From the IMG/VR virus record IMGVR_UViG_3300032038_000006: DNA of 64,000 nucleotides; one strand, written 5' to 3'. Under the pieces are notes generated by a model. That model worked only from the letters and a program-made list of their open reading frames with translations, was not told the origin of the DNA and searched no databases. Shown piece after piece: positions 28,792 to 53,530 of this stretch; positions within the stretch are counted from its first letter, which is position 1; every line of letters begins with the position of its first letter. A program made the position numbers and the translations under genes. The stretch comes from a virus. Taxonomy: Duplodnaviria; Heunggongvirae; Uroviricota; Caudoviricetes.

Positions 28792-29546
28792 TGGCACTTC
28801 ATGAATTTGATTGTAAAGGTTACGGTCAGATTGAGCCATCACAGGTTTGGTTCAACCGCGCAGGTATGGTTGAAGCACAGTGTGAACTCAATCCTGCACA
28901 GTTTGCTTCTCACTTCCCAGTTCTTCCTACTGAGGCTGCTCAGGGAAAAATTGTTGCTGAGAACGGCGCATTTTTAATGTGCGATAAAGAAAGAAAGCTT
29001 GCTTGCATTCCTTCAAAGAAGTTAGCTGACTTCGGCTATGTTGCTGGTATTAACTACTCAACTGAGAAGAATTATAACCAGTTCACTCCTGGTCGTAGAA
29101 ACTTCTACATGGTTGCTGGCGAATATCTCCCAAGAATCGGTTTCACCGAGCCTGGTATGAGAATTTGCACAAACGCAATTGTTTGGGATGACCAGGCAGA
29201 CTTTATGAAGGCTCCTTATGTTGCTGCAGGTGCAGATATTACAGACTCTAAGGTTATGTATAATGCAGTTAAGGCTTATATCGCTGCAGTAAGAGCAGCA
29301 GCAGAAACTCCTGCTGTAGATGGCGATGATGAGAGACCTGCTCTTGACCCAATTTACGCTGTTCTTTATGATACAGCAGATTATGGTAACCTTGTAAATA
29401 GAGGTAAGCTTGTATTTACTACAAAGGCTAACGCTATTTCAAAGGGTATCGGTGGCATTTACGCAATCGTTACAGAAGCATACAACAACGCTGATACAAC
29501 ACTTAGCTTCAAGCTTAAGTTTGTAAATAAGCCAGCTACAGTTTAA
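28791..29546 (+). CDS. Putative head decoration/minor capsid protein, 251 aa
   Basis: Between scaffold and MCP; high-expression codon usage; no TAG. Confidence 0.65.
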   Translation: MALHEFDCKGYGQIEPSQVWFNRAGMVEAQCELNPAQFASHFPVLPTEAAQGKIVAENGAFLMCDKERKLACIPSKKLADFGYVAGINYSTEKNYNQFTPGRRNFYMVAGEYLPRIGFTEPGMRICTNAIVWDDQADFMKAPYVAAGADITDSKVMYNAVKAYIAAVRAAAETPAVDGDDERPALDPIYAVLYDTADYGNLVNRGKLVFTTKANAISKGIGGIYAIVTEAYNNADTTLSFKLKFVNKPATV

Positions 29547-29564
29547 TTAGAAGGAGGGGATAAA

Positions 29565-30701
29565 ATGACTGATATCAAAGGAATAAAGGATTTGGTTGTT
29601 CACTCTTTCTATGGAACAAGCCCAGACCCTACTAAGTTTAGTAATAAGGACATTAAGGCTACTCTTAGTGAAGAAATTCACAAGATAGCAAACGACTATA
29701 ATTCATACAGAAGAAATAAGCTCGACCTTTTCGAGATTATGCAGGAAGCATATACTGAGATTCTTCCTAAGCAGGTTGAACAGTTCATCGGTTCTTTCGC
29801 AGAAGTTAAGACTGTTCCACTCAACCAGAAGGCTGTATTCGTAATCAACACTGGCCGTAAACGTGCTAAGCAGTTCATTACAGCAGTTGCTCTTTCTGGT
29901 GTTTATGAGAGCTTCAGACTTGATAAGAACACATTCGAGCTTGGTGGACGTGCAATCGGTGGTGCTGCTTACATTGACTTCGAGAGATATCTTTGTGGCG
30001 ACGAGGACATCGCAGAGTCTACTAATCTTCTTCTTGAAGGCCTCCAGGAAGCTGTTTACGGCGAAATCCAGAGAGCTCTTCTTGCAGCAGTTAATGCTGA
30101 CAATAGACCTGCTAAGAACAAGTACATCGGTGCTGGTTTCGATGCAGACGCAATGGCTTCACTTTGTGCAGTAGCTTCAGCTTACAGCGCAAGCGGTTCT
30201 GTTGTAATTTATGCTACACCTGAGTTCGTTGCTGAAATGGGTCCTGATGCAATCGGTATGCCTGTATATGGTAATGCTCTTCAGGGTACTATGGCTGCTG
30301 GCCAGTACGGCGGATATGCAACTCCTGTTTACAATCCTCGTAACATTGAGGAAATCGCTGCTTACGGCAGAATCCGTACATTCCGTGGTAACCCAATCGT
30401 TGAAATTCCTCAGTCTTATACTGATGAAACTAACGAAGTTACAATCGCTAACCCATCAACAGCTTACATCTTCCCTGTTGGAGATACAAAGCCTGTAAAG
30501 GTTGTATTCGAGGGTAACACTCAGCTTGATGATTGGCAGCACAGAGACCGTAGCTTCGAGATTGAAGTTTACCAGAGAGTCGGTGTTGCAATTCTTACTA
30601 ACTACAACTGGTGTGTATATGTTAACCTTAATCTTGCTGACCCTGAGAAGTATCCTACTAAGTATGCTCTCAACCCAGCAGAACTCACACCTACTATTTG
30701 A
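29565..30701 (+). CDS. Major capsid protein, 378 aa
   Basis: Size, position and strong codon bias; followed by terminator; no TAG. Confidence 0.8.
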   Translation: MTDIKGIKDLVVHSFYGTSPDPTKFSNKDIKATLSEEIHKIANDYNSYRRNKLDLFEIMQEAYTEILPKQVEQFIGSFAEVKTVPLNQKAVFVINTGRKRAKQFITAVALSGVYESFRLDKNTFELGGRAIGGAAYIDFERYLCGDEDIAESTNLLLEGLQEAVYGEIQRALLAAVNADNRPAKNKYIGAGFDADAMASLCAVASAYSASGSVVIYATPEFVAEMGPDAIGMPVYGNALQGTMAAGQYGGYATPVYNPRNIEEIAAYGRIRTFRGNPIVEIPQSYTDETNEVTIANPSTAYIFPVGDTKPVKVVFEGNTQLDDWQHRDRSFEIEVYQRVGVAILTNYNWCVYVNLNLADPEKYPTKYALNPAELTPTI

Positions 30702-30748
30702 TTTAAGTTAAGTAGGAAAAAAATAAAATTAGGTAAAATACCATGAGA

Positions 30749-30781
30749 ACGGTGAGTGAGTTCGGCTCACTCGCCGTTTTT
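30749..30781 (+). terminator. Rho-independent terminator after MCP
   Basis: CGGTGAGTGAG/CTCACTCGCCG plus T-tract. Confidence 0.8.
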
Positions 30782-30803
30782 GAGTTTAAAGGAGGAATTA
30801 ATA

Positions 30804-31322
30804 ATGGAAAGAATGGTAAAAGTAACTAATATGGTAGATTCACAGGTAGGTATTACAGACCTTTCTGTAGGTATCAAACGCCGTTGGCAGAAGAGAGGAC
30901 AGTCATTGCCCATTCCTTTTGAGCAGCTTCAGATATTACTTTATAATGATGGCGTTGCAAATATGTTTAGACAGGGTATGCTTTATATCGACAATATGAA
31001 GGATAAGCAGGACCTCGGTCTTGAGCCTATGGAAGCAACAGAACCTACAAATATCATCGCACTTAGTGAGACTCAGATGAGAGAGCTTTTGAACAATAAG
31101 CCTATTGCAGTTTTCAAAGCTGAAGTAGCTAAGTTACCCGATGCTCAGATAGATAATCTTATTGATTTTGCAATTTCAAATAAAATTGTCAATGTTGATA
31201 AGTGTGCAATCTTAAAGGAAGTTACTGGCCGTGATATTCTCAAGGCTATAAGAACACAGGAAGAAATCGCTGCAGAAGACGCTGCAGAGAAGAAAGCCGC
31301 AGCTGAGGGAAGAAGAATCTAA
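30804..31322 (+). CDS. Virion-module hypothetical protein, 172 aa
   Basis: AAGGAGG RBS at ATG30804. Confidence 0.8.
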   Translation: MERMVKVTNMVDSQVGITDLSVGIKRRWQKRGQSLPIPFEQLQILLYNDGVANMFRQGMLYIDNMKDKQDLGLEPMEATEPTNIIALSETQMRELLNNKPIAVFKAEVAKLPDAQIDNLIDFAISNKIVNVDKCAILKEVTGRDILKAIRTQEEIAAEDAAEKKAAAEGRRI

Positions 31323-34086: not shown

Positions 34087-37026
34087 ATGGCTAATACTCA
34101 GAACCTTTTTGAGAAGTATGGTATTAAGGAAGTTGCTGATGTAACTTTCTACCGTATTGAAAAGAAAGAAGAGACATTCGAGTCTCAGAGAACTATTACA
34201 GCCGCTTCTGTTTTAAAAGGCGCTCTTGAGCTTCGTACAGTTTACCCAGTAAATGAAGAAGGCGTAGGCGACGAGGACGGCTTTGAGGCATATGTATTTA
34301 CTGATGCTGACCTCATTGAAGGAACAAACTACGATTGTGATGATTCTGAAGTTATTACAGCTAAACTTGTTGCTTATTACAATGAAGCAAATGACGTTGT
34401 AAGTGCTGCTCACGTTGGTGAGAGAGAAGACGTATCTACAATTCTTGGCGATAATGCTGAAGCAATTGTTAAAGCTGCTCTTGAAGGAAAAGCTCCTCTT
34501 GCTGAAATTACTTCAAATTCTGTAATTTATGGAAATGAAGATGAGTTTGTAGGTGTTGAGCTTACTAAGGTTGATAGTACTGACCCTAAGAACCCTGTAA
34601 CTTCTACTCTTGTAGTTGATGCAAATACAGACCTTTCTGCAATCATCACTGCTGATGTTAAGGTATATGGTCCTTTTGGTGTAGGTATTCCGACATTCAT
34701 ATTTAAGAGAGATAAGGATACTGGTATTCCAGTTGGAAATGATGTAATTGAAGAGAACTTCAAACAGCTCGCAAATCCAAGTGTTGTTCTTTCTCAGGTT
34801 AAGTATGAAAATGGTTATACTTCAGCTAAGGGTACAATCAGTACTGAGATTACTCTTGAGTTCAGTGAGGACCTTACAACTGGTGTTTACAACACAAATG
34901 CTACAACTGCTGATGTAAGCAGATATCCTGGAGTAGGAACTCACGAGTTCACTTACCCACAGCAGGTTGCTATGTTGTTCGCTAAGAACCAGAACCTTAT
35001 TGCTAAGACTGGTGTAAGATATGTATTCGAGAATGCAGACACAATGTTCGGTGATTTCGACTTTAATGACCAGTTCGCTGGTGCTCCTAAGTCAGCTGAA
35101 AGAATCGTAGTTGTTGGTCTTGCTGGAAAGTTCGATGAAGGCTCATACGATTTGGATGAGATTAAGGAAGCTTTTGCAAAGCTTACAGATGCAATCGAAG
35201 CTAAGGCTTACGATGTAACATACACAGACTATGCTGAGCTTGTAGTTGAAGATGAGATGGGTTACTACAATCCTGCTTTCTTGGGTAATAACTACACAAG
35301 AGTAAACGGCAATGGTAGAATCCAGTTCTTCGCAGATGCAGCAGCTTATATTGCAGCAGTTGGTGCAGATAACTATGATGCAGCTATCGCAGGCGCAGTA
35401 ATGTGGGGCGATGACAAGCACTACAGCATTAATGATGCTATCGACGCTCTTCGTCAGAAGAGACTTGTTCTTGATACTGCTTCAGAGCTTGGTGCCGGCG
35501 GCCTTGCAGGTGTATTCGGTGGTTATAAGGTAAGTTCTAAGGACACTGGTGTTGTTGAGCCAGCTCCTGGTACAGAAGATACTGATACAGCTGAGAACCT
35601 TTACGGTTACACTGTTAATGGTACTGCTGTAAAGCACGCTTATAACAACGAAGATATTAAGACACAGTATCCTCTTGACCAGGTTGTTACTGCTCTTAAT
35701 GAAATCGGTATGCTTGATGGTACTCTTGGCAAGGAAGTAAGAGTAGACTACACTGGTGGTAAGACTTCTAATAGAGCTATTTACGTTAAGGTAAATGGTG
35801 CTATGGATACTGCTGCAAGTGCTTATATGTACTTACTTCACAACAAGAACTTCAACAGACTTGCTCTTGATAAGGACGGAATCTTCAAGTTCAACGATAA
35901 GAAGGGTAATACACTTTACTACCAGGATAAGATTTTCAAGGGCGTAGAGTGGCTTGCACTTGTAATTATCGGTAACAAGGGACTTATCTTCGTAGTTAAC
36001 CGTCACGGCAACAAGAACGTTACAAGAACTGCTTGGATGGTTAATGACGGTGGTTACGTCGACAACAGAAAGGCAGAACTCCTTGTTAAGAATGGTTTAA
36101 TCCACACAACTGTAATTACAGCTAACAATGAAACATTTGAAGCTACTTGCACTGTTGGTGGACTTAAGATACATAAGACACAGAAGAAGGCTAACCGCTA
36201 TGTTCCAGTTCTCTTCCTTGATACTCTTAAGGTATCTACTATCGAGCAGACAGCTCAGGAAGTTTATGCAACTGGTGGTAAGGGTAATGCAAACCTTATC
36301 GGTTGGGACTATGGTAAGGAAATCACACTTAACATTACTGATGCTCTCTTCACTCCAGCTTCTATGGCAGCTATCTATGGTAGCTACGAGGGCAACGACT
36401 TCCGTAAGGGCGTCAAGGAGACAAAGAAGATTGACAGAATGGAGAAGTGCACTGCTAAGAGAAGCTTCATCGTACCTGCTGGTAACTTGAATGGAACTCC
36501 TTCTGAGGCAGACAACACAGCACAGGCTGTTTACTATGACCCAGCTACTATGGAGCCTTATGCAGATGGTACTCCAATTGCAGAAGGTGAAATCTTCTAC
36601 AAGTGGACTCGTTCAGTTGCTTACGAGGGCGATAGTCTTGGTAACACAATTGAAATCTCTGCTGATAAGTTCCCTGGCACTTACAAGGTTGTCGGTGACA
36701 CATTCGTAAGAAGTAAGGAAACTGGTGAGGATGAGAGATTCCAGTTCGTAATCCCACAGGCTAAGATGAACTCTGAGCACACAATCACTCTTGAAGCAGA
36801 GGGTGACCCAACAGTATTCGAAATGAGCCTTAAGGTTCTTCGTCCTGAAGATGGCGTAATGGTTAAGTTTATCCAGTACAATGTTGTAGAGAACGAAGAG
36901 GAGAACGATGGTTCTACTATGGTTAAGGATACTGAGAACCTCAACCTTCTTGATGATGCTGAACTCTTCAAAGTAAGCGCTGACGGCGTTGACGAAGAAG
37001 ATGCAATCGGTGCAACAGAATATTAA
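34087..37026 (+). CDS. Putative major tail (tube) protein, paralogue 1, 979 aa with a large insertion
   Basis: Core motifs YGIKEVADVTFY / VPVLFLDTLKVSTIE / GGKGNANLIGWD / DRMEKC / FPGTYKVVGDT / EAEGDPT; high-expression codon bias; no TAG; terminator follows. Confidence 0.7.
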   Translation: MANTQNLFEKYGIKEVADVTFYRIEKKEETFESQRTITAASVLKGALELRTVYPVNEEGVGDEDGFEAYVFTDADLIEGTNYDCDDSEVITAKLVAYYNEANDVVSAAHVGEREDVSTILGDNAEAIVKAALEGKAPLAEITSNSVIYGNEDEFVGVELTKVDSTDPKNPVTSTLVVDANTDLSAIITADVKVYGPFGVGIPTFIFKRDKDTGIPVGNDVIEENFKQLANPSVVLSQVKYENGYTSAKGTISTEITLEFSEDLTTGVYNTNATTADVSRYPGVGTHEFTYPQQVAMLFAKNQNLIAKTGVRYVFENADTMFGDFDFNDQFAGAPKSAERIVVVGLAGKFDEGSYDLDEIKEAFAKLTDAIEAKAYDVTYTDYAELVVEDEMGYYNPAFLGNNYTRVNGNGRIQFFADAAAYIAAVGADNYDAAIAGAVMWGDDKHYSINDAIDALRQKRLVLDTASELGAGGLAGVFGGYKVSSKDTGVVEPAPGTEDTDTAENLYGYTVNGTAVKHAYNNEDIKTQYPLDQVVTALNEIGMLDGTLGKEVRVDYTGGKTSNRAIYVKVNGAMDTAASAYMYLLHNKNFNRLALDKDGIFKFNDKKGNTLYYQDKIFKGVEWLALVIIGNKGLIFVVNRHGNKNVTRTAWMVNDGGYVDNRKAELLVKNGLIHTTVITANNETFEATCTVGGLKIHKTQKKANRYVPVLFLDTLKVSTIEQTAQEVYATGGKGNANLIGWDYGKEITLNITDALFTPASMAAIYGSYEGNDFRKGVKETKKIDRMEKCTAKRSFIVPAGNLNGTPSEADNTAQAVYYDPATMEPYADGTPIAEGEIFYKWTRSVAYEGDSLGNTIEISADKFPGTYKVVGDTFVRSKETGEDERFQFVIPQAKMNSEHTITLEAEGDPTVFEMSLKVLRPEDGVMVKFIQYNVVENEEENDGSTMVKDTENLNLLDDAELFKVSADGVDEEDAIGATEY

Positions 37027-37046
37027 TAACATATTAAGCTAAGAAA

Positions 37047-37082
37047 TTGGCTATTGAATTAAATAGTTCAATAGCCAATTTT
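37047..37082 (+). terminator. Rho-independent terminator after tail paralogue 1
   Basis: ATTGGCTATTGAA/TTCAATAGCCAAT plus T-tract. Confidence 0.8.
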
Positions 37083-37113
37083 TCTTAGGATAAAATAAGC
37101 GAGGTGAATATGT

Positions 37114-38913
37114 GTGAATATATTTGACCAGTATGGTATAAAGGAAGTCGCTGACGTTACCTTGTACAGTATTCATAAGAAGAAAGATGGTAGCGGCGAT
37201 GTATATTATGTACCCGCACTTTATCTTGATACTTTGAAAATTTCCACAGCTGAGAAGACTGCGGAAAATGTATGGGCACAGGGTGGTAAAGGAAATGCTC
37301 GCTTGATTAACTGGGACTTTGGCAAGCAGATTAACGTTACCCTTGAGGATGCTCTCTGTACACCTGCATCATTAGGATTATGTTGGAATGGTACATTAAG
37401 CGCAGACTGGAAAGATGCTCAGCTTGATTATGATACAGATATTTGTTATTGCAAGAACCCATTAACAAAGATTTCAAGAATGGAAAAGTGCATTTTCCCA
37501 GGCATGAACAATGAAAGAAGTACAATTTCTCATTTACTTCCTAAGCTTTCAGAAGATGAGGTTGACCCAAGTCTTGACCTTCTTATGCGTTCATCAGTAA
37601 TTGATGGTGCAGAAATTAGAGGTCACGGCATTGTTCAAGGACACGTATATGGCTGGAGAATAGCTATTGAAACAAGAGTTAAGTCAATTGCAGTTGTTCC
37701 AGATAAGTTCTTTGATATTAAAGGTCGTTCTTATCCTATTGACCAGTTTAAGAAGATTTCAGTTTCAAGTCTTCCAGACTACATCAATTATAAGGACGCT
37801 ATTATATATAAGATTAATAGCAAGTCTGATTTGAAAGCTCCAAAGGCAGAAATCATTTTCGATGATGCTATGGAGGGCGGCGTAACAGCTCACGTTGAGC
37901 CAGACAAGAAGAGTGCTATTACAGAGACTACTGAACCTAATGTTCTTGTAAAGTCTTATCCATATAAGTAGAACAGAACATTTGCTTCGTTGTTTGGTAA
38001 GGATGCTGAAGATAAGCCATTCATTGAAGACCAGCTTGGAAGCATTTATAACATTGGCGATGAGCCAATCGAAATCTGCGAAGCTGATTATCTTGCTATT
38101 ATCGTAGATAGTAATGATGATTACTATGCATTACTTGGTGTAGCTACTACTGTAGACGAAGGAGACCTTGATGATGCTGTAACTTGGACACAGCCTAAGA
38201 CTCCTGTCAACGTTTACCAGTTTAAGAATATAGATATGTGGTTGAGATTTGATAGTATCAATGCTCTTGCTTATTTCTTAATAACAAAGTATGAGGATGA
38301 TATAAAGAAGATAACTCCTGTTACTATTGACCCAACTACTATGGTATATGGTTCTGATGAGCCAGGCGACGACCCAGAGCCAGACCCAAAAGAAGATGAA
38401 TGGGCAGTAAATCAGAACATTACAGAAGTTACAGAAAACACAGATGGCGAGTCAAGAAAAGCTGAAGGAAAACTTTGGGCTTATATTAACCCAAGAACAA
38501 TGCAGCCTTATGCTGATGACTATTGGTTCCATCAGGGCGAGCCATTCTATGTAAAGTCTCTTACAATGGCTCCAAAGGGTAAGAGAATTAAAGGCAATAA
38601 GATTACTATACGTGCCGACCAGTGGCCTGGTATGTATATGATGGTAGGAGAAACTTATATCCGCTCTCGCGACACAGGTGAAGACGAGCGTATGCAGATT
38701 AAGTTCCCATTATGTAAAGTCCGTTCAGACCATACGCTTACATTGTAGGCAGATGGCGACCCAACTACTTTTAATTTGAACTTAGAAGTAGCTAAGCCAA
38801 AGAGCGGAATTATGATGGAGCTTACAGCTTATGAAATAGCTGAAAAAATGCTTGAAGGAGAGAATGGTTGCTTCTATGCAGTAGATGGCTCAACCGAAGT
38901 GTTGAGCGAGTAA
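37114..38913 (+). CDS. Tail-tube paralogue 2, 599 aa, TAG-recoded
   Basis: Same core motifs; track fragments 37114 and 37990 are in frame. Confidence 0.75.
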
Positions 38914-38931
38914 TAAAAGGAGGCGAGACAG

Positions 38932-41496
38932 GTGGCTAATATATTTGAACAATATGGTATTAAAGAAGTTGCTGATGTAACTATCTATGCTATTGAACTT
39001 GACAAATATGATAACGAGGTTTATATTCCGGTTATGTACCTCGACACCTTAAAAGTCTCTACATTAGAACAGACAGCAGAAGAAACCTCCGCCAGAGGCG
39101 GCAAGGGCAATCCTGAATTGATTACTTGGGACTATGGGAAAGAAATTTCCCTTAGTCTCGAGGATGCCCTCTATACTCCTGCAAGTCAGAGCCTAATGTG
39201 GGGCGGAAAGTTCGGAATAAAGAAGCCTAAAGTATAGGGCTTATGGAATCCTTTGGTTTATCCAAAAGATGAATATGGAAGAATTACATATCTTGAGAAG
39301 AAAGTCCTTCCGAATTATACAAATGGATACTTCACTTATGCAGATGGTACTCCTATTCGTGAGTTACCAAATTCTACTTTCCTATATTATGGTAGAGAAA
39401 ATGATACTGTTGTTTGTATCCATTCTGCAAGTTCTATAACTCCATATATAACTGCGATTACTCTTGCAATGGAATAGTCCGTTCTTCACAATGCATTAAC
39501 AGGAGAAGAGATTGAGGTAAAAACCGATGAGCTTACAGCAATGCAAGAGAATTTGGAAAACCTCGTTTTTGGTAGAGCGGCACAGGGTGCTTACTTTGTA
39601 GTTGATGAACACGGTATCCCTCAAAATCCTGAGATTCCTGCTACAGATTTAGGCGAAGTTACAGAATATGCTCCATCAACAGTTGTTTCATTTATTTGTC
39701 CTTGTGATGGCTCTATAAAGACAGTTCAGTTCGTGCCGGCAGAGGCAGAATATAAGTATGAGTCTCTTGACGGTTTTGCGGCAGGATATAAATGTCCAAA
39801 GGGCTATGAAACTGGTGAGAGAGAATCAGCAGAAGATACTGAAGCTACTCTTGTTAAAACTTACTACTGGAATATTGGAGAAAATTCAATCGTAGCAGGT
39901 TTGACAAAAGCTAAGCAGGACCATCCTTTAACTTATAAAGGAAGACCTGAAAGAGCAGAAATGGCAATCGACAATTATGGAGATTTCAATTTCAGTACTT
40001 TTAATATGCAGGTTCTTAACGGTGTTGAGGGCGATGGTATCATTACTCTTGATGATACTGCCTCAGACCAGTTCTGTATTTATACTCCAATTCCTAAATG
40101 TGATGGTATTATCGGAGATAGCGCAACAGCTTGTGGAAGTTCAGTTGCAGCTTATGGTTATGAGTGGAATAAGGTAGATATGAAGATGGTTTCATTTGAA
40201 GGAGATTAGGACATCTATTATCTTGAAAATGCAAATCTTCGTTATCGCGTTCCTCGTAATAGTACACAGAAGGAAATTATGATAGGCCGCCAGGGCTTCT
40301 ATGAAACAGTATATGATGCAGATTCTGAGCCACAGTGGATAAAAGCAAATGATGAAGAAATTGTTAACATTATGGAACTTACTCGTCAGAATATATAGAG
40401 ACAGAGTTACGGTTACTTTGTAAATCCATATGATGCAGCAATTGATTTCTTTATGAATGTTGAACTTAATCTTCCAGTTCAGAATAACAAGTCAATTAAG
40501 CGTTTTGTAAGAGTTCCTCTTGGACGTTTTTATATTATAGCTGACTGGAACTTCGGTGGAGATACTCCATATGACCTTATTCATCCTATTTAGAGTGGAA
40601 TGGAAAACGTACCAGTTCTTGATAGAATGGAGAAGTGCAAAGCAACTCAGACATTCGCTATTGATGCTAATAAGAATCTTGCAATGGCTAATTACCGTTA
40701 TATGCAGGAATATGCTGAAGCACCACTTACAGTATTTATTGACCCTAAGACAATGAAGCCTTATGAGCCAAATGCTGGCAGTTTCACTCGTCAGAGTGGT
40801 GATGTTATTACAGGTAATCTTCGTATTATAAAACAGTACGAAATTTATTATAAATGGACTCGTACAATAGCTCCTCCTTATACAACTCTTGGACATCGTA
40901 TTATTGTCGATGCCGAGCACTTCCCAGGCACATATCGTATCGTTGGTGAGACATATTGCCGTAGTCGTGATGATGGTAAGGATTAGAGATATTAGTTTGA
41001 GATTCCTCTTGCAAAGCTTTCACCTGAGACAAATCTTACTCTTTAGGCTGACGGTGACCCAACTACATTCCCAATGAAGTTTAAGGTATTGCGCCGCGAC
41101 GACGGAGTTATGATGAAGTTAACTCAGTACAATGTAGATTGCAACAGTTATGATGGCTACACAAGTGGTAGTACAAAAGTAGTTCCTACTGATGTTATCG
41201 AAGATAACACATATGATACTATTTACAGTTCTACTAAGGAAGCTGCAATTCGTCTTGTTAAACCTCCAACAATTACAAGAGAACTTACTGAGGAAGAGCT
41301 CGGTGGACAGGTTGAAATTACTGAGGATATCAATGCAGTACTTGATACATCTGCTACAGCTATAGCTGAAACATATAATACTCAGACTCTTGAAGTTGTT
41401 GATAGATAGGTTGTTAGAACTGAGAACACAGAATAGCTTGACAATGATGAATATACTGTTACAGTAGAAAATCTTGATGAGGAGGTGGGTGAATGA
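38932..41496 (+). CDS. Tail-tube paralogue 3, 854 aa, TAG-recoded
   Basis: Same core motifs; fragments 38932/39253/39541/40600/41074 share a frame; TGA overlaps ATG41493. Confidence 0.75.
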
Positions 41497-42956
41497 ATCT
41501 TTTTAAGCAGTACGGAATAAAAGAGGTCGCTGATGTAGTATTTTATAGTATTACTAAAGTAGGCGATGAAGAGTTCTACACTCCCGTCCTCGTTCTCGAT
41601 ACTTTAAAGGTTTCCACAATTGAGAAATCAGCAGAGAAAGTTGAGGCTAAAGGTGGTAAAGGTAATAAGAAGTTAATCACTTGGAACTTTGGTAAAGAGT
41701 TGACATTAAATCTTACAGATGCTTTATTTAGTCCAGCTTCAATGAGTTTAATCTGGGGCGGCAAGTTAAATGCTAAACTTACAGATTATACTTCTGCTAT
41801 TGTTAAATGTAATATGGCTAATAAATATGGTAGCCTTAATTATTCTACAAAAGCTTATCCATCACCTGCTCTTACAGATGATGAATGGGAGTTTATCTTT
41901 AAGGCGGCGCAAGAAACAGAAGTTCCTTCTGGTGCTGATAATGACCATGACACTGTTTACTTCATTGAAAATCCAACTGGTGATGAACCTTGGGTAGAAG
42001 AAAATAGAACAGAGTTAAGAAGACGCTATTTCAATAGAACTTGGGTAACTGAGTATACATAGGAATAGATGACTACTTCAAAGCCATTTACAACTGATGA
42101 TTATAATTCAGTAAAAAGCTTCACAACAGCTACAACATAGGATGAGTGGTTCCGTTCACAGGCCGCCATGCCAGAAATTGTTTTAGCGAAGATATTCTCT
42201 TATATCAATGAGTTGAAGAAGCTCGGTACTATTGAAACTGAAATCTATGACACAGAAGTTGTTGATAGAATGGAAAAATGTATTGTTAAAAATAGAGATG
42301 GTCTTACAATTAGTACAGCAGAACAGAAAAAGAACTTGCTTAAGTATTATCGTAATGACCAGACAACCAGCTATGTAATTTATTACGATGCTAAGACAAT
42401 GCTTCCATTACTTGCTGTTACTGACGAAGGATTTATCAGTGGATGGGATAGTGCAGACAACCCTGGTATATATGATAAGGACTTTAATAGAGTTACAGAC
42501 AACGACTTATTTAGAATTAAGCAGGGAACTGTTTATTATAAGTGGAGCCGCACTGTTAAAAGAAAGGTTGGCGACGATGATGGTATTCTCGGAAAGACAT
42601 TTGTAATTGATGCAGAGACCTTCCCAGATACATATAAAATCGTTGGAGAAACTTATATTCGTGAGCAGAAAACTGGCAAAGACCAGCGTTATCAATTTAT
42701 TATCCATAGAGCTCAGGTTTCTTCAGATACCAGTATCACACTTGAAGCAGAGGGCGACCCTACTACATTTGAAATGAAGATTGATGTTCTTACTCCTCCA
42801 AATGACATTCAAATGGAGCTTAAATAGATTGATGTAGATGAAGATTTCATCCACGGCGGTACTCGTATCGTTCCTCAGAAATCTCGCTACACATATACTC
42901 CAACAGATGTTCCTAAGAAGAAGACCGTCGGCTTTTCAAATGATGAACTATATTGA
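41493..42956 (+). CDS. Tail-tube paralogue 4, 487 aa, TAG-recoded
   Basis: Same core motifs; terminator GAGACGAC/GTCGTCTC follows. Confidence 0.75.
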
Positions 42957-43047
42957 TATTATGAGACGACTTCGGTCGTCTCTTTTCTTTATATACATCT
43001 CTATGAAAATCTACTTGTTATAAGAAAATGAAAAGGAGGTATGTCCA

Positions 43048-43950
43048 ATGGATAATTTTGTTGGAATGAAAGAGCTTTATGATGTCTCTTTAAGACTCAA
43101 CTCTCCTTTAGAGATAGGTGGAAAGAAGTATGATATAAATGAAACTGTATTAAGTTTTAAAACCGCTGAGATTGCTTAGATAAATGAGATAAAACGAGAA
43201 GTATCTGCTCGTGGCGGCTATCATAATCCAGCCCTTGTAAATTGGGAAGTTGATAAAGAAATGAACTTTGCAATAAGTCATGGTGTTCTTTCACCAAAGA
43301 GTTGGGCATTACTTAGTAATTCAAAATTGAAAGAGCCAGTATATAAATCTGTTTAGTATAATTAGGAATTATAGGCAATTGAAGAAGGAGATTATTGCTA
43401 TGTGGATTTAAAATATTGTCCAAATAGTTGCGATTGTAAACTTGGTGCACAGCCAAATCCTTGCTTTGAACCTTTGCCTATGGGTAGAAAACCAGAGTTA
43501 ATGCTTAAACCATTGCCTCCTTCTAAGACTAAGTGGATATTTATATACGATACGGAAACTGGTTAGAGAATTAGAGATTTTGAAATATATCAAAATCGTA
43601 TATTCTTTAAATAGTCTGTGAGAAAGGTTGAGGTAGATTATACCTTTGATTATGAAGATAAGATTAGGACGTTAGAAGTAGGTAATAGGCTTCTAAATGG
43701 TTTTCTCCGTTTGCAGGGGAAAATGAGTGTAAAGGATGAAAAGAGTGGCGAAGTAACCACTGCGATATTGGAGATGCCAAAGATTAAATTATCTTCGAGT
43801 TTATCAATAAGATTAGGAAAGAACTACAATTAGTCTACAGTTAGTGACTTCTTCTTTACTGGTTATCCAGATGAAAGTAGAAGAAGAGAAGACCAGACTA
43901 TTGCCTATGTTACTTTCTTAGATAAAGAATTAACTGGAGATTATATTTAA
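43048..43950 (+). CDS. Divergent tail-tube paralogue 5, 300 aa, TAG-recoded
   Basis: GMKELYDVSL / SARGGYHNPALVNWEVDKEMNFAISHGVLSP / LNGFLRLQGKMSVKDEKSGE...MPKIKLSS match the paralogue core. Confidence 0.65.
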
Positions 43951-43994
43951 GAGGGCGGCGCGAGTTGTCCTCTTTTTGTTTGTGAGGTGAGAGA

Positions 43995-45902
43995 ATGGAT
44001 AATATTGTTAATGGCTCTAAGCCTTCTATTATTCAATATACAAAAATGGGCAGAAAAGATAATATTGAATTAAATGCAGAGGAATCTTTCTTTTGGTCTG
44101 AAGAGTATAGACAATTTGCTACATAGGCTTATAATCTTTTGAATTAGCCTTATTATACAAAAAAAGATAAGTTAATTGCTGCGTTAGAAGATAAACTTTA
44201 GAGTTTATATATTACTGCAATTGGAAGAGAACAACAGTTTCTTACAGCAATTAAAGCTGAGAAAATTAAATCTGCTCCAGCTCACGTTAGCTCTCCAGAG
44301 AATGATGCTTATGCAAAAGAGTTTAATAAAGTAGTGAAAAAGAAATTATATAGTGATAAAAATGATTTAAGGGCATTATTTCAAGATTATGAATATGCTA
44401 CTTATTTATCTCATTCAAGCAATACTTTTAGTTTACACGCATCTGCACAAGTAAAAGGACGAAAAGTAAATACTGCTACTTATGAATTAGCAAATTTATT
44501 TTTGACTGAAAAAGGAAAATCTATGATTGAAAAAGGACCTCAAAGAAGTGCCTTTTTAGAGACAAGAAAGTTGACTAATAGAGATGAATATAATAAATGG
44601 CTTGTGTAGTTTGAAAAGTATATGAATGATTATATAGGAGAGGGGATAGGAACCGCGGCATTACAGTCTCCAGAGTTTGTTGAAGGCGTTTATAATAATA
44701 TAGGTTCAATTTTTGAATAGGAGGCTAATGCTCTTTTTAATGGAACGAGAAGGGACATATATTTTAACGCTCGTACCAATGGAACTAAAAAAGGTGTATC
44801 TGAGTAGACAGAGAGAGAGTTAAAAAATATTTTAAAAAGAGTTATGAGTATTGCTGCAAAAACAAGTGGGGTTGATATTAAATTTGATACTCCAATAGGA
44901 CCCCTTTCTTTATCAAGCGATGTAACTGTTAATAATGGTATCTACGCCGCATAGGTTAATGCGAAATTATGGACCGATGACGGAACTATGATTTCGCCAG
45001 AATAGATGGTGGATATATTATATGATGTTTTATACACTACCGCAATAAGTTTTGCAAATAGCCATAATGATTATGATTAGAAAACTATTGAAAGAGATTT
45101 AATAAATAATAAATCTATTATAAGAGATATTATATTAACAGATATAAATAAAAATGAGAATGAACAGACACGAACATCAGAAGATGTTAGAAAGATAATT
45201 GCCCGTTGGGGATATGCACAAACAAGAGGTATTCTTGGAGAACTTGCTGCCGCAATTGCTGTTGTTTCAAAAATTAAAGGAAGTTCTGCTTCAGTTACTG
45301 GTAGTGATGAAACAGAAGCCGGCGAAGTTGCAATGGACGTTGTCGTTTAGATTGCTGGTAAAAAGTTTGGATTCCAAGTAAAGAATTTTAAGAGTCTAAA
45401 AAAACAAAGCGGTTTTTATAGAACTGACTTTGACATTTCTAACAAGAATATTATGTAGAAATATGTAGGAAATGCTGCTGATACATATTATTGGTTATTT
45501 ACAAATGAAAAAATGTTAGAGAAAGACGGCGCGGATGGAGGTCTTGGATGGACTACTCCAATTAAATTTAAACACGCTATTGAGATGTCATTATATGATT
45601 ATTCAGATAATTTTTTAAGAATATCAGCTGGAGATACTGATGATTTTACTCGTAGCGATGCTTTCTTTTTAAAGAATTTAATTATTCCAAGTTCTTATTT
45701 ATATTATTTACTTATAAAAACAGTAAGAAATGCTAAATCTCCTTAGAGATTTGACTTTCAAAGAAATACTTAGAATAATAAATTTAATACGCTTGAAGAA
45801 AACGTTCCCTTTAAAGCAACTTCTGTTTAGTCATTGGTTAGTGGTTTAAATGGAAGAATTGAATTTAAAGGAATAAACTTTAATTTAGATAAATTTGAAT
45901 GA
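43995..45902 (+). CDS. Hypothetical protein with a PD-(D/E)XK-like motif, 635 aa, TAG-recoded
   Basis: GAGGTG RBS; RGILGE...MDVVV*IAGKKFGFQVKN. Confidence 0.65.
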
Positions 45903-45922: not shown

Positions 45923-48900
45923 ATGGGTTCAACTACAATTAGATTGAGAAGTGAACTTGATGTATCTGGGATACTTAATTCCATAAAACAAGTTCGTTCA
46001 GAGCTTGCCAAACAAGGCGATTCTCCCTTAATAGGTAATTTAGATAGGGAGATAGCTAAAATACAGAATTTGGGCGCAACAATTAAAGCCCAGATGGAAA
46101 GAGGATTCTCCTCTTCAAAAGAGCTTTCAGCTTTTGAAAGCAATATGAATAAGCTTGAGCTTGATGTAAGAAAAGTTGGGTAGAGCTTTGACAGTATAAA
46201 TGCAGATAATTTAAAGAGAATTATTAAAGATGTAGATAATTAGGTTGCATCACTCCGTCAAAAAGCAACAGATTTATCTAAGAGTCTTAAATTAGCTTTA
46301 AATGTTGAAACTTCAAGCATGGGAACTACTGCCAAGAATCTTGTTGCTGAAATAACTAAGATGGCGCAGGAAGGAAAATCTTATGAAGAAGTACAAAAAA
46401 GAATATTGTCTGTTTATGAAAAATAGGTAAAAGAAGAAGAAAAGAAAACTGCTGAGATGGAGAAATAGCTTAATTTAGCAAAAGGTCAAGAAGTTAAGGT
46501 AGAAAAAAGCGGTTTTTAGAGACAGCGCTTTACTACATCAGACGGTAGTCAAAAACTTGATGATACTTAGTTAAAAGCTGTTAATACAGCATATGAAAAT
46601 GCTATTAAAGGTGCACCATCTGCAAAAAAGGCTTAGAAAGCTTTTGGCGAAGAATTAGAAAGATTAGGTATTAAGGCAAAGAATGTTGAAGGTATTATGA
46701 ATCGAGTTTCAGAAGCCTTCTTAAATTATCGTAATGCCGTAAATAAAAGTAATAAAAATATAGACTCTTTAAATAATAAACTTGAAAGATAGAGAGCAAA
46801 TACAGCAGAAGTTGAAACAGAAAGTCGTCTTATGGTTGAAGCACTTGATAGAACAAGAAGCGAATATAATAATGTTACTATCGCGGCCAATGATGCAAAT
46901 AAAGCAGAAGCCGAAGGAGAAAAAACTAAAGAAAGAGCGATTGAAGCTTCTAAGAGACAGGCGGCAGAAAATGCAAAAGTAACAGCAACTTTGAACGATT
47001 AGATGAATTAGGAAAAGAAAAATGTAAGGGTAACTGATGAATAGAGATAGGCTCTTGATAAGTTGGATTAGAAATTTGACCGTATTAGTAATACTATCGC
47101 TCGTTATGCTTCTTTTACTTTTGTATTTAGAACAATTCGTAGATTAATTAGTGAAACTTTTGCTGATGTTGAAAAACTTGATAAAGCTTTCGCTTCAATT
47201 GCGATGGTAACTAATAAGAGCGTAAGTGATTTGTGGTCAAGTTATGACCAGTATGTTGCTATTGCAAATAAACTTGGACAATCTACTGAGTCTGCAATTA
47301 AGGCTTCAGCTTTATTCTACCAGCAAGGTCTTGAGACTGCAGATGCATTGAAATTGACAGAAGATACTATGAAATTGGCAACACTTGCCGGAGCAGATTT
47401 TGAAACTGCTACTCAGCAGATGACTGCTGCCCTTCGTGGTTTCCATATGGAAATGGATTAGGGCGCTCATATTACTGATGTTTACTCAGAACTTGCTGCT
47501 CACGCTGCTGCTGATGTTAATGGTATTGCATATGCGATGAGTAAAACTGCTTCTATCGCGGCAAATGCTGGTATGAGTTTCGAGACAACATCTGCACTTT
47601 TAGCATAGATGATTGAAACTACTCAGGAAGCTCCTGAGAATATCGGTACTGCGATGAAAACAATTATCGCAAGATTTACTGAGTTAAAGAAGAATGTTAG
47701 TGCCACAGAGTCAGAATTTGAAGACCTTGATTATAATAAGGTTGATACTGCGTTAAAAACAGTTGGTATTAATATTAAAGATGCTACTGGACAGTTTAGA
47801 AATCTTGATGATGTATTTCTTGAATTAAGCTCTAAGTGGGATACTCTTGATAGAAATAGCCAACGTTATATTGCAACTATTGCCGCTGGTTCTCGTCAGC
47901 AATCACGTTTCATCGCTATGATGGAAAATTATGAAAGAACTATGCAATTAGTTAATATAGCACAAGATTCTGCCGGACGTTCAAATATTTAGTTCTCTAA
48001 ATATGCAGACACAGTTGAATATCGTGTTAATAAATTAAAAAATACTTGGGAAGCTTTTAGAGTAAGTTTAGGTAAAAGTGAAACATTTAAAAAGTTACTT
48101 GATTTAGCTAATAATTTATTAGTTGTATTTACAGATTTAACTGCTACATTACCAAAATTTACTATGACTTTAATTACAGTAATGACTACTGTAAAAGCCT
48201 TGAAATTACTTGTTTCTACATTAAAAGCGGGAACAAGTGAATTTGCAAAAGGTTATATGCAGGCCACAGGTAAATCTCCTGCATAGAACATGGGTTAGCA
48301 AATAACAGCGGGTGGTGTTCAAGCCGCAAATTCTATGAGAAGAGGTATTATAGAAGGAGGTTTGCAAGCTGCCGCAGAAATTCGCGGAGCCTTAGCTGGT
48401 TTTGGCGGAGCCACAACAACTGACATCACTTTGTCTTCTTCTGTTGAATAGGCTGCAGCAACATTTGCGACTGAAACAGATTAGGCTGCAAGTTATTTTT
48501 CAACCGCAGTAAATGATGCCGCTTCTACATTCACTATAAGTGTAACAGATGCCGCTGCGACAGAAGAAGCTGGCGCATGGACAGAAGTTGCTACTGAAGA
48601 AGCTGGTGCTGCAACAGAAGTCGCTACTGAGGGAGCTGGGGCCGTAGCAGTAAATGCTGAGAATCTTGCTGCAACTCAAACAGAAAATGCATTAAGACTT
48701 CACGAAACTGAAGTAGAATGTCAAATGAGATTGGCGGCAGCGTAGGGAGAGTCATTATCAAGAACTGGTACATCATTTGCAAGTAAAGCTGGTGGTTTTG
48801 TAGGTAAAGTTCTTCCTGCAATTATGGCTGTTGCAACAATAGCGACTGTAGCTATGGGATTCAATTCTACAAGAGCTGCGAAAAAAGAAGAACGTGAGAA

Positions 48901-51900
48901 AGAACGCAGAGAAATTTATGAATTAGCTACAACAAATATGAAGGAAAAATAGTCTTATAGTATGGCTCCATATAATAAAGCCCAGAACGATTTAACTTCA
49001 TTAGAAGATGCAGTTGATGCTATTAATACATTAAGTAATAGGACTTATTTGAGTGCAAAAGAGCAAGAAAGATTAACTACAGCAACTGAGCTAATGAATA
49101 ATTAGTACCCTGATTTAATAGATAGTTTTGATGAAAATACAGGGAAGATGGTTCTTCTTACAAAGAAAACAGATGAAGCCATAAAAATGCAGAAAGATGC
49201 CGTTACGGCACAAAAAGCTATTGCAGCGGGACGAATGGGGTCAGCTAAAGCTAATACTATAGGTGCTGTAGGTGAACAGTGGGGAGGCCAAAAAGTTGTA
49301 GGAGATAGTTCTATACAAAGAGGCTTCAATGATTTTGGTAATAACAAGAATGCTTAGAATGGTGTAATTGCAGGATTAGCAGTCACAGGTGGCGTAATAG
49401 GCGGAGTAAAACTTGGCTCAGTTATTGGTGGAGCTATTGGTTCTGTTATCCCAGGTCTTGGAACTGCAATAGGTGCAGGAATTGGTGCGGCGGCCGGAGC
49501 TTTAATCGGAATTGGAGTAAGTGCATGGGCGCGCTCATATGCTGAAAGCCATACGGACATGACTGAAACTCTTAATATGTTTAGCAAACTTAGTGACGAA
49601 GCTTAGAGAAATATCTATGAAGAATTAAGTAGATAGACAGGAAAACAAATAGATTCACAGGAAAAACTTGAAGATTGGCTTGAAAAAAGCGCCTCAAAAT
49701 AGGAGCAATTTATAGGAATAGTTCAAGATGTATTAGAAGGTATGCGCCAAGAAGCTGTTAAAGAAGAGCGTCATAATGCAACAATTGTATATTTAGCAAA
49801 TGAAAAATATGGAAAAAATGAAGAGTCAATTAGTGAGACATTCTTAAGAGGTTTCCATGATTAGAGTACAACTAACTATGAATTAAAAGAAACCGATTTT
49901 GAAAAAGCATATTCAACATCAGATATAGAAGATAGAAATTCTAAAAAATTAACTAAAGTAATTAAAAAAACTGATGGCGGATATGACCCGATGGGCAAAG
50001 AAAAAAGAGAAGAATATGAAGCTATGCATACTGCATTAGAAAACGCCCTCGGAGAAGATAATCAATTTATTAAATGGGATTTATTATCAGATGAAGTGAA
50101 AGGTGCTCTTGCTCAATGGGGATATACATAGGATTAGTATGCTAAACTTGAGGGTCAAAAAATTAAAGACGCTTACGGCTCAATTAATGAAAATTTCTAT
50201 AATAAAATTGTTGGAGACAGATTGATTAATACATCTAAAGAATTAAAAGAAAATTTGGATAAAATAGTAGACTCTGATTATTGGCCTGCAATTTAGGAAT
50301 TAACTGATATAAATAAGTTGGCTTCTGAATATACACCAGAAGAAATTCGTAAAAAATATGACGAAGTCTCTGAATAGCTTAGCGGAATTGTAGATAATTA
50401 TTCTAAGTACGGATTTAATAGTGCAGAGGCAGCTGAAGATTTTGTAGAATAGCTTAGACAGGGTATTTACGGTAAGGATTCTGAAGGAAATAATATTACA
50501 GATGGAGCATCTGAAATATTTGATACATATGATGCTGCAAAATAGCTATTAAAAGATATTGGATTCTCTGATGCTATAACTGAAGGTATGAACGCAGAAG
50601 CTCTAATGGCATTAAATGCTGTTGGAGAAACTATTATGGACTCAGAAAATGCTGGAGTTATAGTTTATGCCTTAAATAAATTAATGAGCGATATTCCTGG
50701 AAATCTCGACAAGAAAACTGCCGCAGCAGTTAAAAATTATATTGCCGAGCAGTTAACTCCAGATAACTTTGATGTGACGCGTTGGAATGAGTACATTGAG
50801 CATTTAGCTTTATTAACTGGCGATGCAGAATACGCAAAAAATATAGTAAGTTCATTATATAATGAATGGAATAGCTACGATTTACTTTCTCCAATAAAAG
50901 ATATAGAGTCTTATAATGAAGCTCTTAAAAAAGTTATTGAAACTATGAAAGATGCTTAGAGTGCTTTTGGAGATATGCTTTCTGCTTATAAGAGCAGTAT
51001 TGGCAAAAATGGCATGACTGTTGATGACATAGATAAATTAGTGGATGGCGGTTATGGTTCAGCTATTAATGAAAATGGAACTGTTAATTTAGAGAAAGCA
51101 TTAGAGACATATAGAGGTAAAATTAGCTCATAGCTTGACGAAGCAAAAGCAATAAGAGAATCATTAAAAGATGATACATTAACTGCTGAACAAAGAATTG
51201 AAAAAGAATAGGCTTATAGCGCAGCCATTGCTGCGGCGTAGGCTATGGAAAAACACGCAGCTCAAGACTTAATAGATATGGAAAAAGAACTATCTAAAGA
51301 AAGAGCAGAAGCAGAAGAAAAGTATAATAAAGCATTAAGAGATGAATAGAAACAATTAAGAGATATTGCTAAAGCAGAAAAAGAAGTTCAGGCGGCGTAT
51401 CACGGGTCTTCAACTTGGAATACTTCTTTAGGCCCAATGTATAATTATGAAACTACTTTAAATCAAATTACTAATGCTTAGGAACTTTATAATTTAGAAT
51501 TAAAAGATACTACTGATTTATTAAGTAGAATAAATGTATTAAACAATAAAAATGCAACGGCTCATGATAAAGAAGTACTGCTCGGAGCTAAATCCAAGGT
51601 TATTACTGAAGCCATGAATGACAATGAAAACTGGCTTAATCAGTATTCAGATTTTTGGTATAAAAATAATGGTCGTTATTTATTCAATTATTCTTATGCT
51701 AATAGCTCTGATATGCCAGATAAAATGAGAGATGAAATTGCGAGACGTTTAGGTGAATAGAACAGTTATGCAGAATAGAATGAAGCAATTTTAAAAGAAA
51801 AGAAATAGTTTGATTAGGATATGCTTGCAGAATAGAAAGAATATCTAAATAAATATAATAGTTTACTTAAAGAAGGAGCAAATATTCTTAAAGAAAACGC

Positions 51901-53530
51901 ACAAGAAGAAGTAGATACATTAAAAGAAAAATATGAAAGCATGAAAGAAGCTGATGATGAATATTACGATGCATTGTCTGAAGCAATTGATAAAGAAAGA
52001 AAACTCCGTGATATGGCTAATGCAGAAGAAGACCTCGCTGAAAAAGAGAAAAAATTATCTTTATTACAACGAGACACTTCTGGAGCAAATGCAAAAGAGA
52101 CTTCATAGTTGCAAGAAGAAATAGAAAAAGATAGACAGGACAATTTAGATAAGCAAGTCGATATGCTACTTGAAGAAATGAAAAAAGCAGCAGAAGATAG
52201 AGCTAAAGAAAGAGAAGCATTAACTGAAAATACAGAGGCTATAATTGAATCAACAGAATGGACTAAATTAATGAAAGAACAAATGAGTTCTTGGACCAGT
52301 GAAGACGACGCTGTAGCTTGGCTTTACGCTAATAAAAAGATAGATGATATTACTGATGAAGAGATTGAGCAAATAACTAATGAATGGAAAGAAAAATATG
52401 CTGATGGTTTATCTTATTTAGCATAGTTTAATGAAAATTATACTGGATATATATAGGCAACAGATTAGGAGATATAGGCAGCTTCTTAGAATATTCAAAA
52501 TGATTTAATTAATGCAAGTAATAATACAACCCAAAAAGTTAAAGAAGATATAGAAGAAGCTCAACTTTCTGCTGATAATGCGCTTGCTGATGCAAAAGAT
52601 GCTTATGCTGAATTAACCAGAAATATTGCTGATTATAAAGAATCTTTATTAGATGCTAATACTGCATGGGATAATTACTATAAAACTCATAAAGAAGGAG
52701 CATAGAAATATGCAACAGATTTAGCAGACTGGTATGAAAAAGAATTGGCAAGAATCGCTAAAGAAAAAGCAGATACTCTTTATTCAGAGACAGAAGACTT
52801 AGGAAAACATTATACAGAATCTTATAATAAAGCTCCAACTGGTATGGAAAAAAGTGCTATTACTTATGCAGCCGAAGAAAAAGGATATGTATGGAGCGAA
52901 GATAAGAATGGATTCATATATAATCCAACAAGAGCCTCTTAGATTGAAGCTTCAAGAAGATATGTTGCACCAAAGACAAAGACAGAAGAGCTTTAGGAAT
53001 TATGGAATTAGCTTGATACATAGTCAGACCCTTCTCAAGATATGGGAGTGCCTGTTTATCAGATTGCTTGGAACGCTCAATACAGATATACAAAAGATGA
53101 AAGCGTTGCAAAAATGTGGAAAGAAAATGGAGCATCAGTACAGTATGACCCAAATCCAATGGCTTAGGGAACTGGCAGCGGCTATGGATATAATTGGTAG
53201 AAATATGCAACTGGTGGACTTGTTCCATATACAGGTATAGCTCAGGTAGATGGTACCCCATCTCGACCAGAAGCCTTCTTATCCGCAGAAGATACAGAAC
53301 GTTTCTTGACTGCGGCACAATTATTTGCAATGTCACCACTTCTTAATTCTGCATCCGCTCAAAATGCCGTTTCTTCATCTATTGGAGATACTTCTATAGA
53401 AATCAACATTAATGTGGAAAGTATTTCAGATGATTATGATGTTGACCGCTTAGTAAAGCGTGTTGAGGAAGATATTGCTGAGGCTGCACAGCCTACAGGA
53501 ACAGCAGTCATTTTAAACAAAAGAGTCTAA
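45923..53530 (+). CDS. Tail tape-measure protein, ~2535 aa, heavily TAG-recoded
   Basis: Seven track fragments (47204, 47609, 49148, 50588, 52109, 52745, 53306) are in frame with ATG45923; TMP-type segment MIETTQEAPENIGTAMKTIIARF...LSSKWDTLDRNSQRYIATIAAGSRQ; long helical composition. Not every codon was checked. Confidence 0.88.

Follow-up and report, generated by a model that had tools for sequence, protein, structure and literature searches.

The window analysed here is the whole stretch of 64,000 nucleotides (nt) from IMG/VR virus record IMGVR_UViG_3300032038_000006 (Caudoviricetes). Its source is an uncultured gut or rumen phage, large and with a non-contractile tail. At 34087-43950 on the + strand, the window encodes five tandem proteins (P1 to P5) once TAG is read as glutamine. 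They form a conserved set of five tail-tube (major tail protein) paralogues, with the following genes, lengths in amino acids (aa):

34087..37026, + strand: P1, 979 aa, tail-tube paralogue with an insert of ~680 aa after strand 1
37114..38913, + strand: P2, 599 aa, GTG start, 2 TAG codons
38932..41496, + strand: P3, 854 aa, GTG start, 10 TAG codons
41493..42956, + strand: P4, 487 aa, 4 TAG codons, ATG start overlapping the P3 stop (ATGA)
43048..43950, + strand: P5, 300 aa, divergent paralogue of predicted tube fold without a large insert, ATG start, 7 TAG codons

Under translation table 11, the copies P2-P5 fall into fragments, and the late module on the + strand, from 20059 on, is open only with TAG as an amino acid. 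In an alignment with non-recoded orthologues, the TAG columns held glutamine in 182 of 569 cases, and the runner-up residue in 56. Glutamine is thus the most frequent residue at these columns, which independently supports a reading of TAG as glutamine by this phage.

All five proteins belong to the family phrog_2729, with E-values of 3.7e-45 (P1), 1.7e-31 (P2), 4.6e-38 (P3), 5.7e-42 (P4), and 9.6e-13 (P5). BLAST within the window aligned P1 and P3 in a colinear but split manner: the first strand (80% identity over 20 aa, E 2e-5), the hairpin block (66% over 61 aa, E 1e-22), and the C-terminal half (40% over 204 aa, E 7e-39). P5 was matched to the other copies more weakly but significantly (E 1e-7 to 3e-10). 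Identity between the copies is 35-66% within the core blocks. The most conserved blocks are the N-terminal arm (76-80% identity) and the hairpin, and these two blocks of P2-P4 are 40-80% identical to P1. The third codon positions of the shared arm and hairpin blocks are near saturation, which rules out gene conversion as the origin of the common N-terminus and indicates that selection keeps the arm alike. Each paralogue aligns only once to the 259-position core profile and thus has one core, which sets the copies apart from tandem-domain tube proteins such as T5 pb6 and that of P74-26.

Structural comparison placed this core among the tail tube proteins. The core profile matched a solved tail tube protein of SPR type (E 1.5e-4). 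For the AlphaFold model of P4 (predicted local distance difference test, pLDDT, 77), the best Foldseek match was the SPR tail tube protein 8ygm (E 1e-9, TMt 0.69); VIA found JBD30 (Z 14.1, root mean square deviation 2.7, 161 residues) and YSD1 (Z 13.1). The P1 model (pLDDT 65) matched the tube proteins of SPR, JBD30, and YSD1 with E-values down to 5e-11. Its structural alignment covers residues 9-932 and spans the insert, so that in the model strand 1 and the distal core make up one tube fold around the insert. Both models contain the tube β-sandwich with an N-terminal arm and a long β-hairpin, as compared with SPR, JBD30, YSD1, Douge, and Mystique (Z 11-14). P1 and P4 are therefore modelled with a tail-tube fold; P2, P3, and P5 are assigned a tube core by homology. 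In Pfam, the family PF25681 (Phage_TTP_17, gathering cut-off 27 bits) matched only P4, below that cut-off (14.2 bits, E 0.036). The original prediction, made from the sequence before these searches, had proposed five open reading frames that share one split core of tail-tube type. Its coordinates and lengths were right with TAG as glutamine, the family and colinear BLAST matches cover all five, and the models of P1 and P4 agree with the proposed fold, so that the core survives the fold test set in that prediction.

The gene order points to the same identity. The first of the late genes is sigma-like; the large terminase gene, which a GIY-YIG element interrupts, and the portal gene follow it. 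Three TAG-free capsid-slot genes and the connector-slot genes come next, and then P1-P5. A 635-aa gene, the tape measure gene, a gene for an 845-aa distal tail protein (Dit), and more tail genes lie 3' of P5.

45923..53530, + strand: tape measure gene, 2535 aa, context of the array

The array thus has the head-tail connector genes on one side and the tape measure gene on the other, as a siphophage major tail protein does, and the downstream tape measure gene fixes it in the major-tail-protein slot. The tail-tube identity proposed earlier is borne out by this position.

Related loci (numbered with the prefix L) were collected from IMG/VR; 13 were found with P4 and 43 more by profile, giving 56. 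The order P1-P2-P3-P4-P5 and 1:1 orthology are kept in essentially every complete locus. Missing copies fall at contig ends, and one locus has no detectable P5. One locus (L057:7804-11925) has six copies, two of which are P4-like and encode proteins of 727 and 689 aa. The 1:1 orthology persists across lineages down to ~40% identity, and every copy forms its own clade in the core tree. The ratio of nonsynonymous to synonymous substitution rates (dN/dS) is 0.03-0.2 for all five copies, and 0.03-0.1 in their cores, which indicates purifying selection. With their age, their fixed order, and this selection, the copies cannot be called redundant. Many of the array-bearing relatives do not recode TAG, and all five genes are intact in recoded and non-recoded relatives alike. 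The array is therefore independent of TAG recoding, and a link between the two is ruled out.

Copy numbers outside the array-bearing group are lower. An uncultured sister group has two genes, a bare tube protein of 240-300 aa followed by a P5 orthologue. This second gene matched the P5 profile at E 1e-44 to 1e-68, versus 1e-9 to 1e-16 for the general core. P5 accordingly represents the oldest split, already present in the two-gene relatives. The cultured relatives have a single tube gene. Taken together, the copy numbers of the cultured, sister, array, and six-gene relatives make a series of one, two, five, and six genes likely. The family as a whole is large, counting 1958 representatives at 50% identity that range from 228 to 1183 aa. 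One or two tube genes had been taken as typical in the original prediction, and the comparison in relatives which it proposed gave five conserved copies here, two in the sister group, and one in the cultured relatives.

Some relatives carry altered copies. In L046:5396-6196, L047, L054, L007:5744-6880, and L008, an element with an open reading frame of 231-232 aa interrupts P1 close to the 3' end of the gene. The frame contains NUMOD1 and I-HmuI-like domains, which mark it as a homing endonuclease; a short frame with the last P1 residues lies downstream of it. At the gathering score, Rfam found no group I intron at this element. Oversized stop-to-stop frames were found for P5 in L045:11344-14271 (976 aa) and for P4 in L070:10746-14459 (1238 aa), and in these the protein is either extended much further or fused to the product of the gene that follows.

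Codon usage changes along the array. P1 has no TAG in 979 codons, versus ~15 expected from the other late genes, and all of its 20 glutamine codons are CAG. When 17 recoded lineages are pooled, the number of TAG codons per 1000 is 1.1, 4.9, 11.9, 12.0, and 14.3 from P1 to P5; P1 has the lowest value in 16 of the 17. The CAG share of glutamine codons is 0.72, 0.51, 0.27, 0.20, and 0.22, respectively (22 lineages, including non-recoded ones), and this gradient is present also in the non-recoded lineages. In several lineages (L061-L068), nearly all glutamine codons of P1 and P2 are CAG, which does not hold for P3 and P4. Among the genes of the window, P1 and the capsid-slot trio (28791-31322) are alone in having neither TAG nor CAA; the low-copy tail genes encode glutamine mostly by CAA and TAG. 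The TAG-free, CAG-only signature presumably marks the most abundant virion proteins. A codon index was trained on the capsid-slot genes versus the low-copy tail genes, with glutamine excluded. It was +0.25 for P1, about 0 for P2-P4, and -0.27 for P5, with +0.08 to +0.30 for the capsid-slot genes and -0.28 for the tape measure gene as references. P1 ranks with the capsid-slot genes, P2-P4 in the middle, and P5 with the low-copy tail genes. These values suggest an abundance order of P1 >> P2-P4 > P5, with P2 near P1 in some lineages, and the codon evidence argues against equal amounts of the copies.

The starts and the intergenic hairpins also differ between the genes. P1 has a strong AAGGAGG ribosome-binding site and an ATG start. 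P2 and P3 start nearly always with GTG or TTG in the relatives. The ATGA overlap of P3 and P4 is found in the window and in L001; the other lineages have a gap of 23-357 nt. Three terminator-like hairpins are present:

37039..37088, + strand: terminator-like hairpin after P1, perfect 15-bp stem, then TTTTTCTT
42963..42990, + strand: terminator-like hairpin after P4, GAGACGAC-TTCG-GTCGTCTC, then a T-run
43949..43984, + strand: terminator-like hairpin after P5, then a T-run

The hairpin after P1 has a folding free energy (dG) of -26 kcal/mol and a z of -7.7. It is kept in L001, L002, and L012, and absent in L003 and L013. The position after P4 is occupied by a hairpin in every lineage checked, with different sequences. 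P1 had been described in the original prediction as the only copy that is both free of TAG and followed by a terminator. The first part holds, with 0 TAG codons versus 2, 10, 4, and 7 in P2-P5. The second part does not, because hairpins with a T-run also follow P4 and P5.

Four of the five copies carry large inserts of 160-680 aa, which were placed by alignment to the core profile. The insert lies after strand 1 in P1, just after RMEKC in P2, and between the PAS..WGG block and DRMEKC in P3 and P4; the sites of P2-P4 thus fall mid-fold. A large insert is absent from P5. No similarity was found by BLAST between the inserts of different copies. Unrelated large blocks at these sites had been described before, and the profile placement confirms them. 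The inserts and related features are:

34168..36201, + strand: P1 insert, ~aa 28-705
34354..34896, + strand: strain-variable P1 cassette, aa 90-270, inside the P1 insert
37486-38415, + strand: P2 insert, ~aa 125-434, conserved among P2 orthologues
39298-40683, + strand: P3 main insert, ~aa 123-584
39289-39741, + strand: strain-variable P3 cassette, aa 120-270, inside the P3 main insert
41140-41493, + strand: P3 acidic C-terminal extension, aa 737-854, 118 aa
41784-42332, + strand: P4 insert, helical, ~aa 98-280

A second, small insert is found in both P3 and P4; the one in P4 is 46 aa long (aa 305-350). The C-terminal part of the P1 insert (~aa 285-692, nt 34939-36162, ~400 aa) shows 46-68% identity across all P1 orthologues. 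The P1 cassette is only 56% identical to that of L002, whereas the remainder of the gene is 98% identical. The synonymous divergence (dS) is 1.1 in the cassette versus 0.05 elsewhere in the gene, which indicates allele exchange by recombination. The P3 cassette behaves like the P1 cassette, with sharp differences between near-identical phages and saturated dS. By analogy, this pattern fits exchangeable surface-binding modules.

The inserts were compared with known domains by several methods. Pfam found no domains in the five proteins, and none at E <= 0.001 in 44 insert-bearing relatives. Comparison of the P1, P2, and P3 sequences with the PDB was uninformative for the inserts; a match of P3 residues 661-741 to a pilin (E 0.0085) lies within the tube core and was treated as chance. 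The ESM Atlas search gave no usable match for the inserts. Foldseek and VIA, run on the whole models, gave tube-core matches only, apart from immunoglobulin (Ig)-fold adhesins that appeared in Foldseek with a low probability (<= 0.13) and were not trusted. No Ig-like, Big, or FN3 domain on the tube domain was recognisable by Pfam, or by Foldseek on the whole models, although an insert may still contain a hidden Ig-like fold.

The array is real and conserved, and we infer as its mechanism a multi-subunit tail tube. P1 would be the main tube subunit, made at capsid-protein levels, and its insert of ~75 kDa would form an outer coat round the tube. P2, P3, and P4 would be scarcer subunits that enter the same hexameric lattice, each displaying its own outward domain; they share the N-terminal arm and the long β-hairpin with P1, and so may be able to join this lattice. 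For YSD1, the authors probed tube assembly by deleting the N-terminus and the β-hairpin, and the domain that interrupts the tube fold there sits on the outer surface (PMC7385642). The P1 and P3 cassettes would be swapped between strains, as is expected of cell-surface adhesion modules. P5, which is insert-free, represents the oldest split, and has low-copy-like codon usage, would make up a single special ring or a small number of them, perhaps at one tube end. Three factors would determine the subunit ratios: codon usage together with TAG content, the weak GTG/TTG starts of P2 and P3, and leaky terminators 3' of P1, P4, and P5. This whole reading, with P1 as bulk tube, P2-P4 as rarer co-assembling display subunits, and P5 as a special ring, is favoured here with modest confidence. 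A heteropolymeric or segmented tail displaying distinct accessory domains along its length had been proposed in the original prediction. The tube fold, the slot, and the old, ordered, and selected copies support part of that proposal, with co-assembly and segments along the tail being putative; P5, which has no accessory domain, departs from it.

Several points weigh against this reading. The copies are known here from their genes alone, from which we infer that more than one of them is in the tube, and the outward orientation of the insert sites is putative. Codon bias is just a proxy for abundance. The 378-aa TAG-free gene is taken as a capsid protein by position and synteny only, and its sequence gave no confirmation. 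The terminator 3' of P1 is missing from some lineages. No insert has a recognised fold or domain, so the adhesion role rests on analogy. The cultured relatives make long tails from one subunit; a special ring is thus not strictly required.

The subunits may instead be arranged as an ordered polymer. P1, joined by P2 in some lineages, would form a shaft with a coat of its own, ~75 kDa for each subunit, P3 and P4 would form rarer rings with exchangeable adhesins, and P5 would form a terminal ring. We regard this arrangement as a tentative possibility, held with clearly less confidence than the mixed lattice.

An assembly with fixed ratios is doubtful. Every ring would then be an obligate hetero-hexamer; rings of three P1-P2 pairs might build the bulk of the tube, for example, and rings of three P3-P4 pairs a special zone, giving three-fold rings with P5 as a cap. 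Three-fold rings are known from T5 pb6, and a natural Hcp2-Hcp3 heterohexamer is present in the PDB (9vnd). The strictly kept gene order and number would suit such an assembly. So would the almost purely CAG usage shared by P1 and P2 but not by P3 and P4 in L061-L068, but P2 of the window is clearly less codon-biased than P1. The P3-P4 overlap could likewise couple a pair in the window and L001, but it is not conserved elsewhere. Moreover, the core tree pairs neither P1 with P2 nor P3 with P4.

A tube built of P1 only is somewhat more doubtful still. P2-P4 would then be anchoring rings (collar, baseplate layers, or side-fibre mounts), and P5 an initiator or terminator comparable to T4 gp48, gp54, and gp3. 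Tube-fold domains do recur in Dit, hub, and terminator proteins, and baseplate and neck chains were among the structural matches. The codon bias of P2-P5 is below that of P1, and one tube subunit suffices in the cultured relatives. However, the window already holds the Dit gene and connector/terminator-slot genes shared with Lactococcus phage 949. The arm and hairpin of P2-P4, at 40-80% identity to P1, are also far closer to it than initiators and terminators usually are to their tube protein. For P5, a candidate cap or starter, tube-family homology and low-copy-like codon usage were observed.

Evasion of host defences that sense the tail tube, with extra or masked subunits acting as alternatives or decoys, is very improbable. 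The closest solved structures include the SPR tail tube protein both alone and in an entry titled 'DSR2-SPR' (8ygc), and the inserts evolve fast and are exchanged between strains. However, the cores, as the presumed sensor target, are the most conserved parts, and every lineage keeps all copies in fixed order, whereas decoys would vary. It is hardly credible that the extra genes are merely duplicates, redundant or in decay, which lack a role of their own: tandem duplicates are common in large phage genomes, but the low dN/dS of all five copies (which rules out pseudogenisation), their 1:1 orthology down to ~40% identity, and their intactness in recoded and non-recoded relatives speak against it.

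The closest known systems share some of these features with the multi-subunit tube proposed here. Tube proteins of the same family, phrog_2729, occur in Lactococcus phage 949 (gp136) and in large siphophages of Bacillus and Enterococcus. In phage 949 and Enterococcus phage VRE9_3, the gene occupies the same slot, with phrog_4088, 3853, 6123, and 4051 upstream as in the window, and a giant tape measure gene downstream. The phages of 949 type have one copy of 234-344 aa at one place per record (70 records), whereas the window has five, four of them with inserts. The Bacillus phage SPR tail tube protein (8ygm, 8xkn, 8k98, 9jgh) is the best structural and profile match to the core (structural E 1e-9 to 5e-11, TMt up to 0.69; profile E 1.5e-4), with ~10-20% identity. 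It is a single protein of ~264 aa without large inserts, unlike P1-P4. The YSD1/Chi major tail protein (6xgr) matches the tube fold of the P1 and P4 models (Z 12.5-13.1). It is encoded by one gene and has a small Ig-like insert and a C-terminal Big_1 domain, whereas the inserts here are up to 680 aa, Pfam-negative, and different in each paralogue.

Siphophage tail tubes are textbook homopolymers. The tube subunits of lambda (gpV), SPP1 (gp17.1*), and T5 (pb6) have accessory domains that aid cell-surface adhesion, and their decorations are C-terminal Ig-like or FN3 domains. SPP1 has two tube forms in unequal ratio, the second arising from a frameshift in one gene. The display idea is alike, but the window has separate ancient genes with internal inserts. 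Several tube-fold modules occur in the contractile tail of T4 (gp19 with gp48, gp54, and gp3), which are alike at the fold level only, and two tube domains are fused in one chain in T5 and P74-26. Tube modules cooperate in these phages too, but the proteins of the array have single cores that are 35-66% identical in core blocks. The Hcp2-Hcp3 ring of the Bacteroides fragilis type VI secretion system is a natural ring of two paralogues in the same fold superfamily as the tube core; unlike the phage array, it belongs to a secretion system and has two small insert-free subunits. Decorated, two-form, and tandem-domain tube proteins and hetero-hexameric Hcp rings are thus already known. In the literature, no report was found of arrays of more than two tube paralogues, nor of ordered sets in which tube paralogues, four to six in number and encoded separately, carry large internal inserts.

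If the ordered polymer described above is correct, it would be the first non-contractile phage tail known with five different tube subunits. The homopolymer picture would have to be revised for a conserved tube of five subunits whose inserts reach 75 kDa, and such a tube would provide a natural scaffold showing several different domains along one filament. The stepwise evolution from one to two, five, and six genes would be comparable to that of hetero-oligomeric proteasome rings, and this series might be a tractable case of the change from homomeric to heteromeric assembly. For recoded phages that are uncultured, the gradient of TAG and codon usage offers an inexpensive proxy of subunit ratios. 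The cassettes of P1 and P3, variable at strain level, are candidate determinants of host adhesion away from the tail tip. The family is common in gut and rumen viromes, where its genes are labelled only as 'structural proteins'.

Other observations concern the relatives and the neighbouring genes. The relatives L075-L085, taken from a bacterial genome collection, are contigs binned into metagenome-assembled genomes, several of them of phage size (150-185 kb). The bins are labelled as Clostridia, Ruminococcus, Erysipelotrichaceae, Melainabacteria, Prevotella, and others, covering several phyla. These contigs look like mis-binned phage genomes and give no single host. In the window, the usual slot of the tail assembly chaperones (43995-45902) is occupied by a single TAG-rich protein, the 635-aa product mentioned above, which had no PHROG or Pfam match. 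Rfam group I introns were found 3' of the array, four in L055:16846-19751 and one in L007:18214-18400, where the tape measure region is expected. As a rule of thumb, each tape measure residue corresponds to ~0.15 nm of tail, and the 2535-aa tape measure protein would give a tail of roughly 380 nm.

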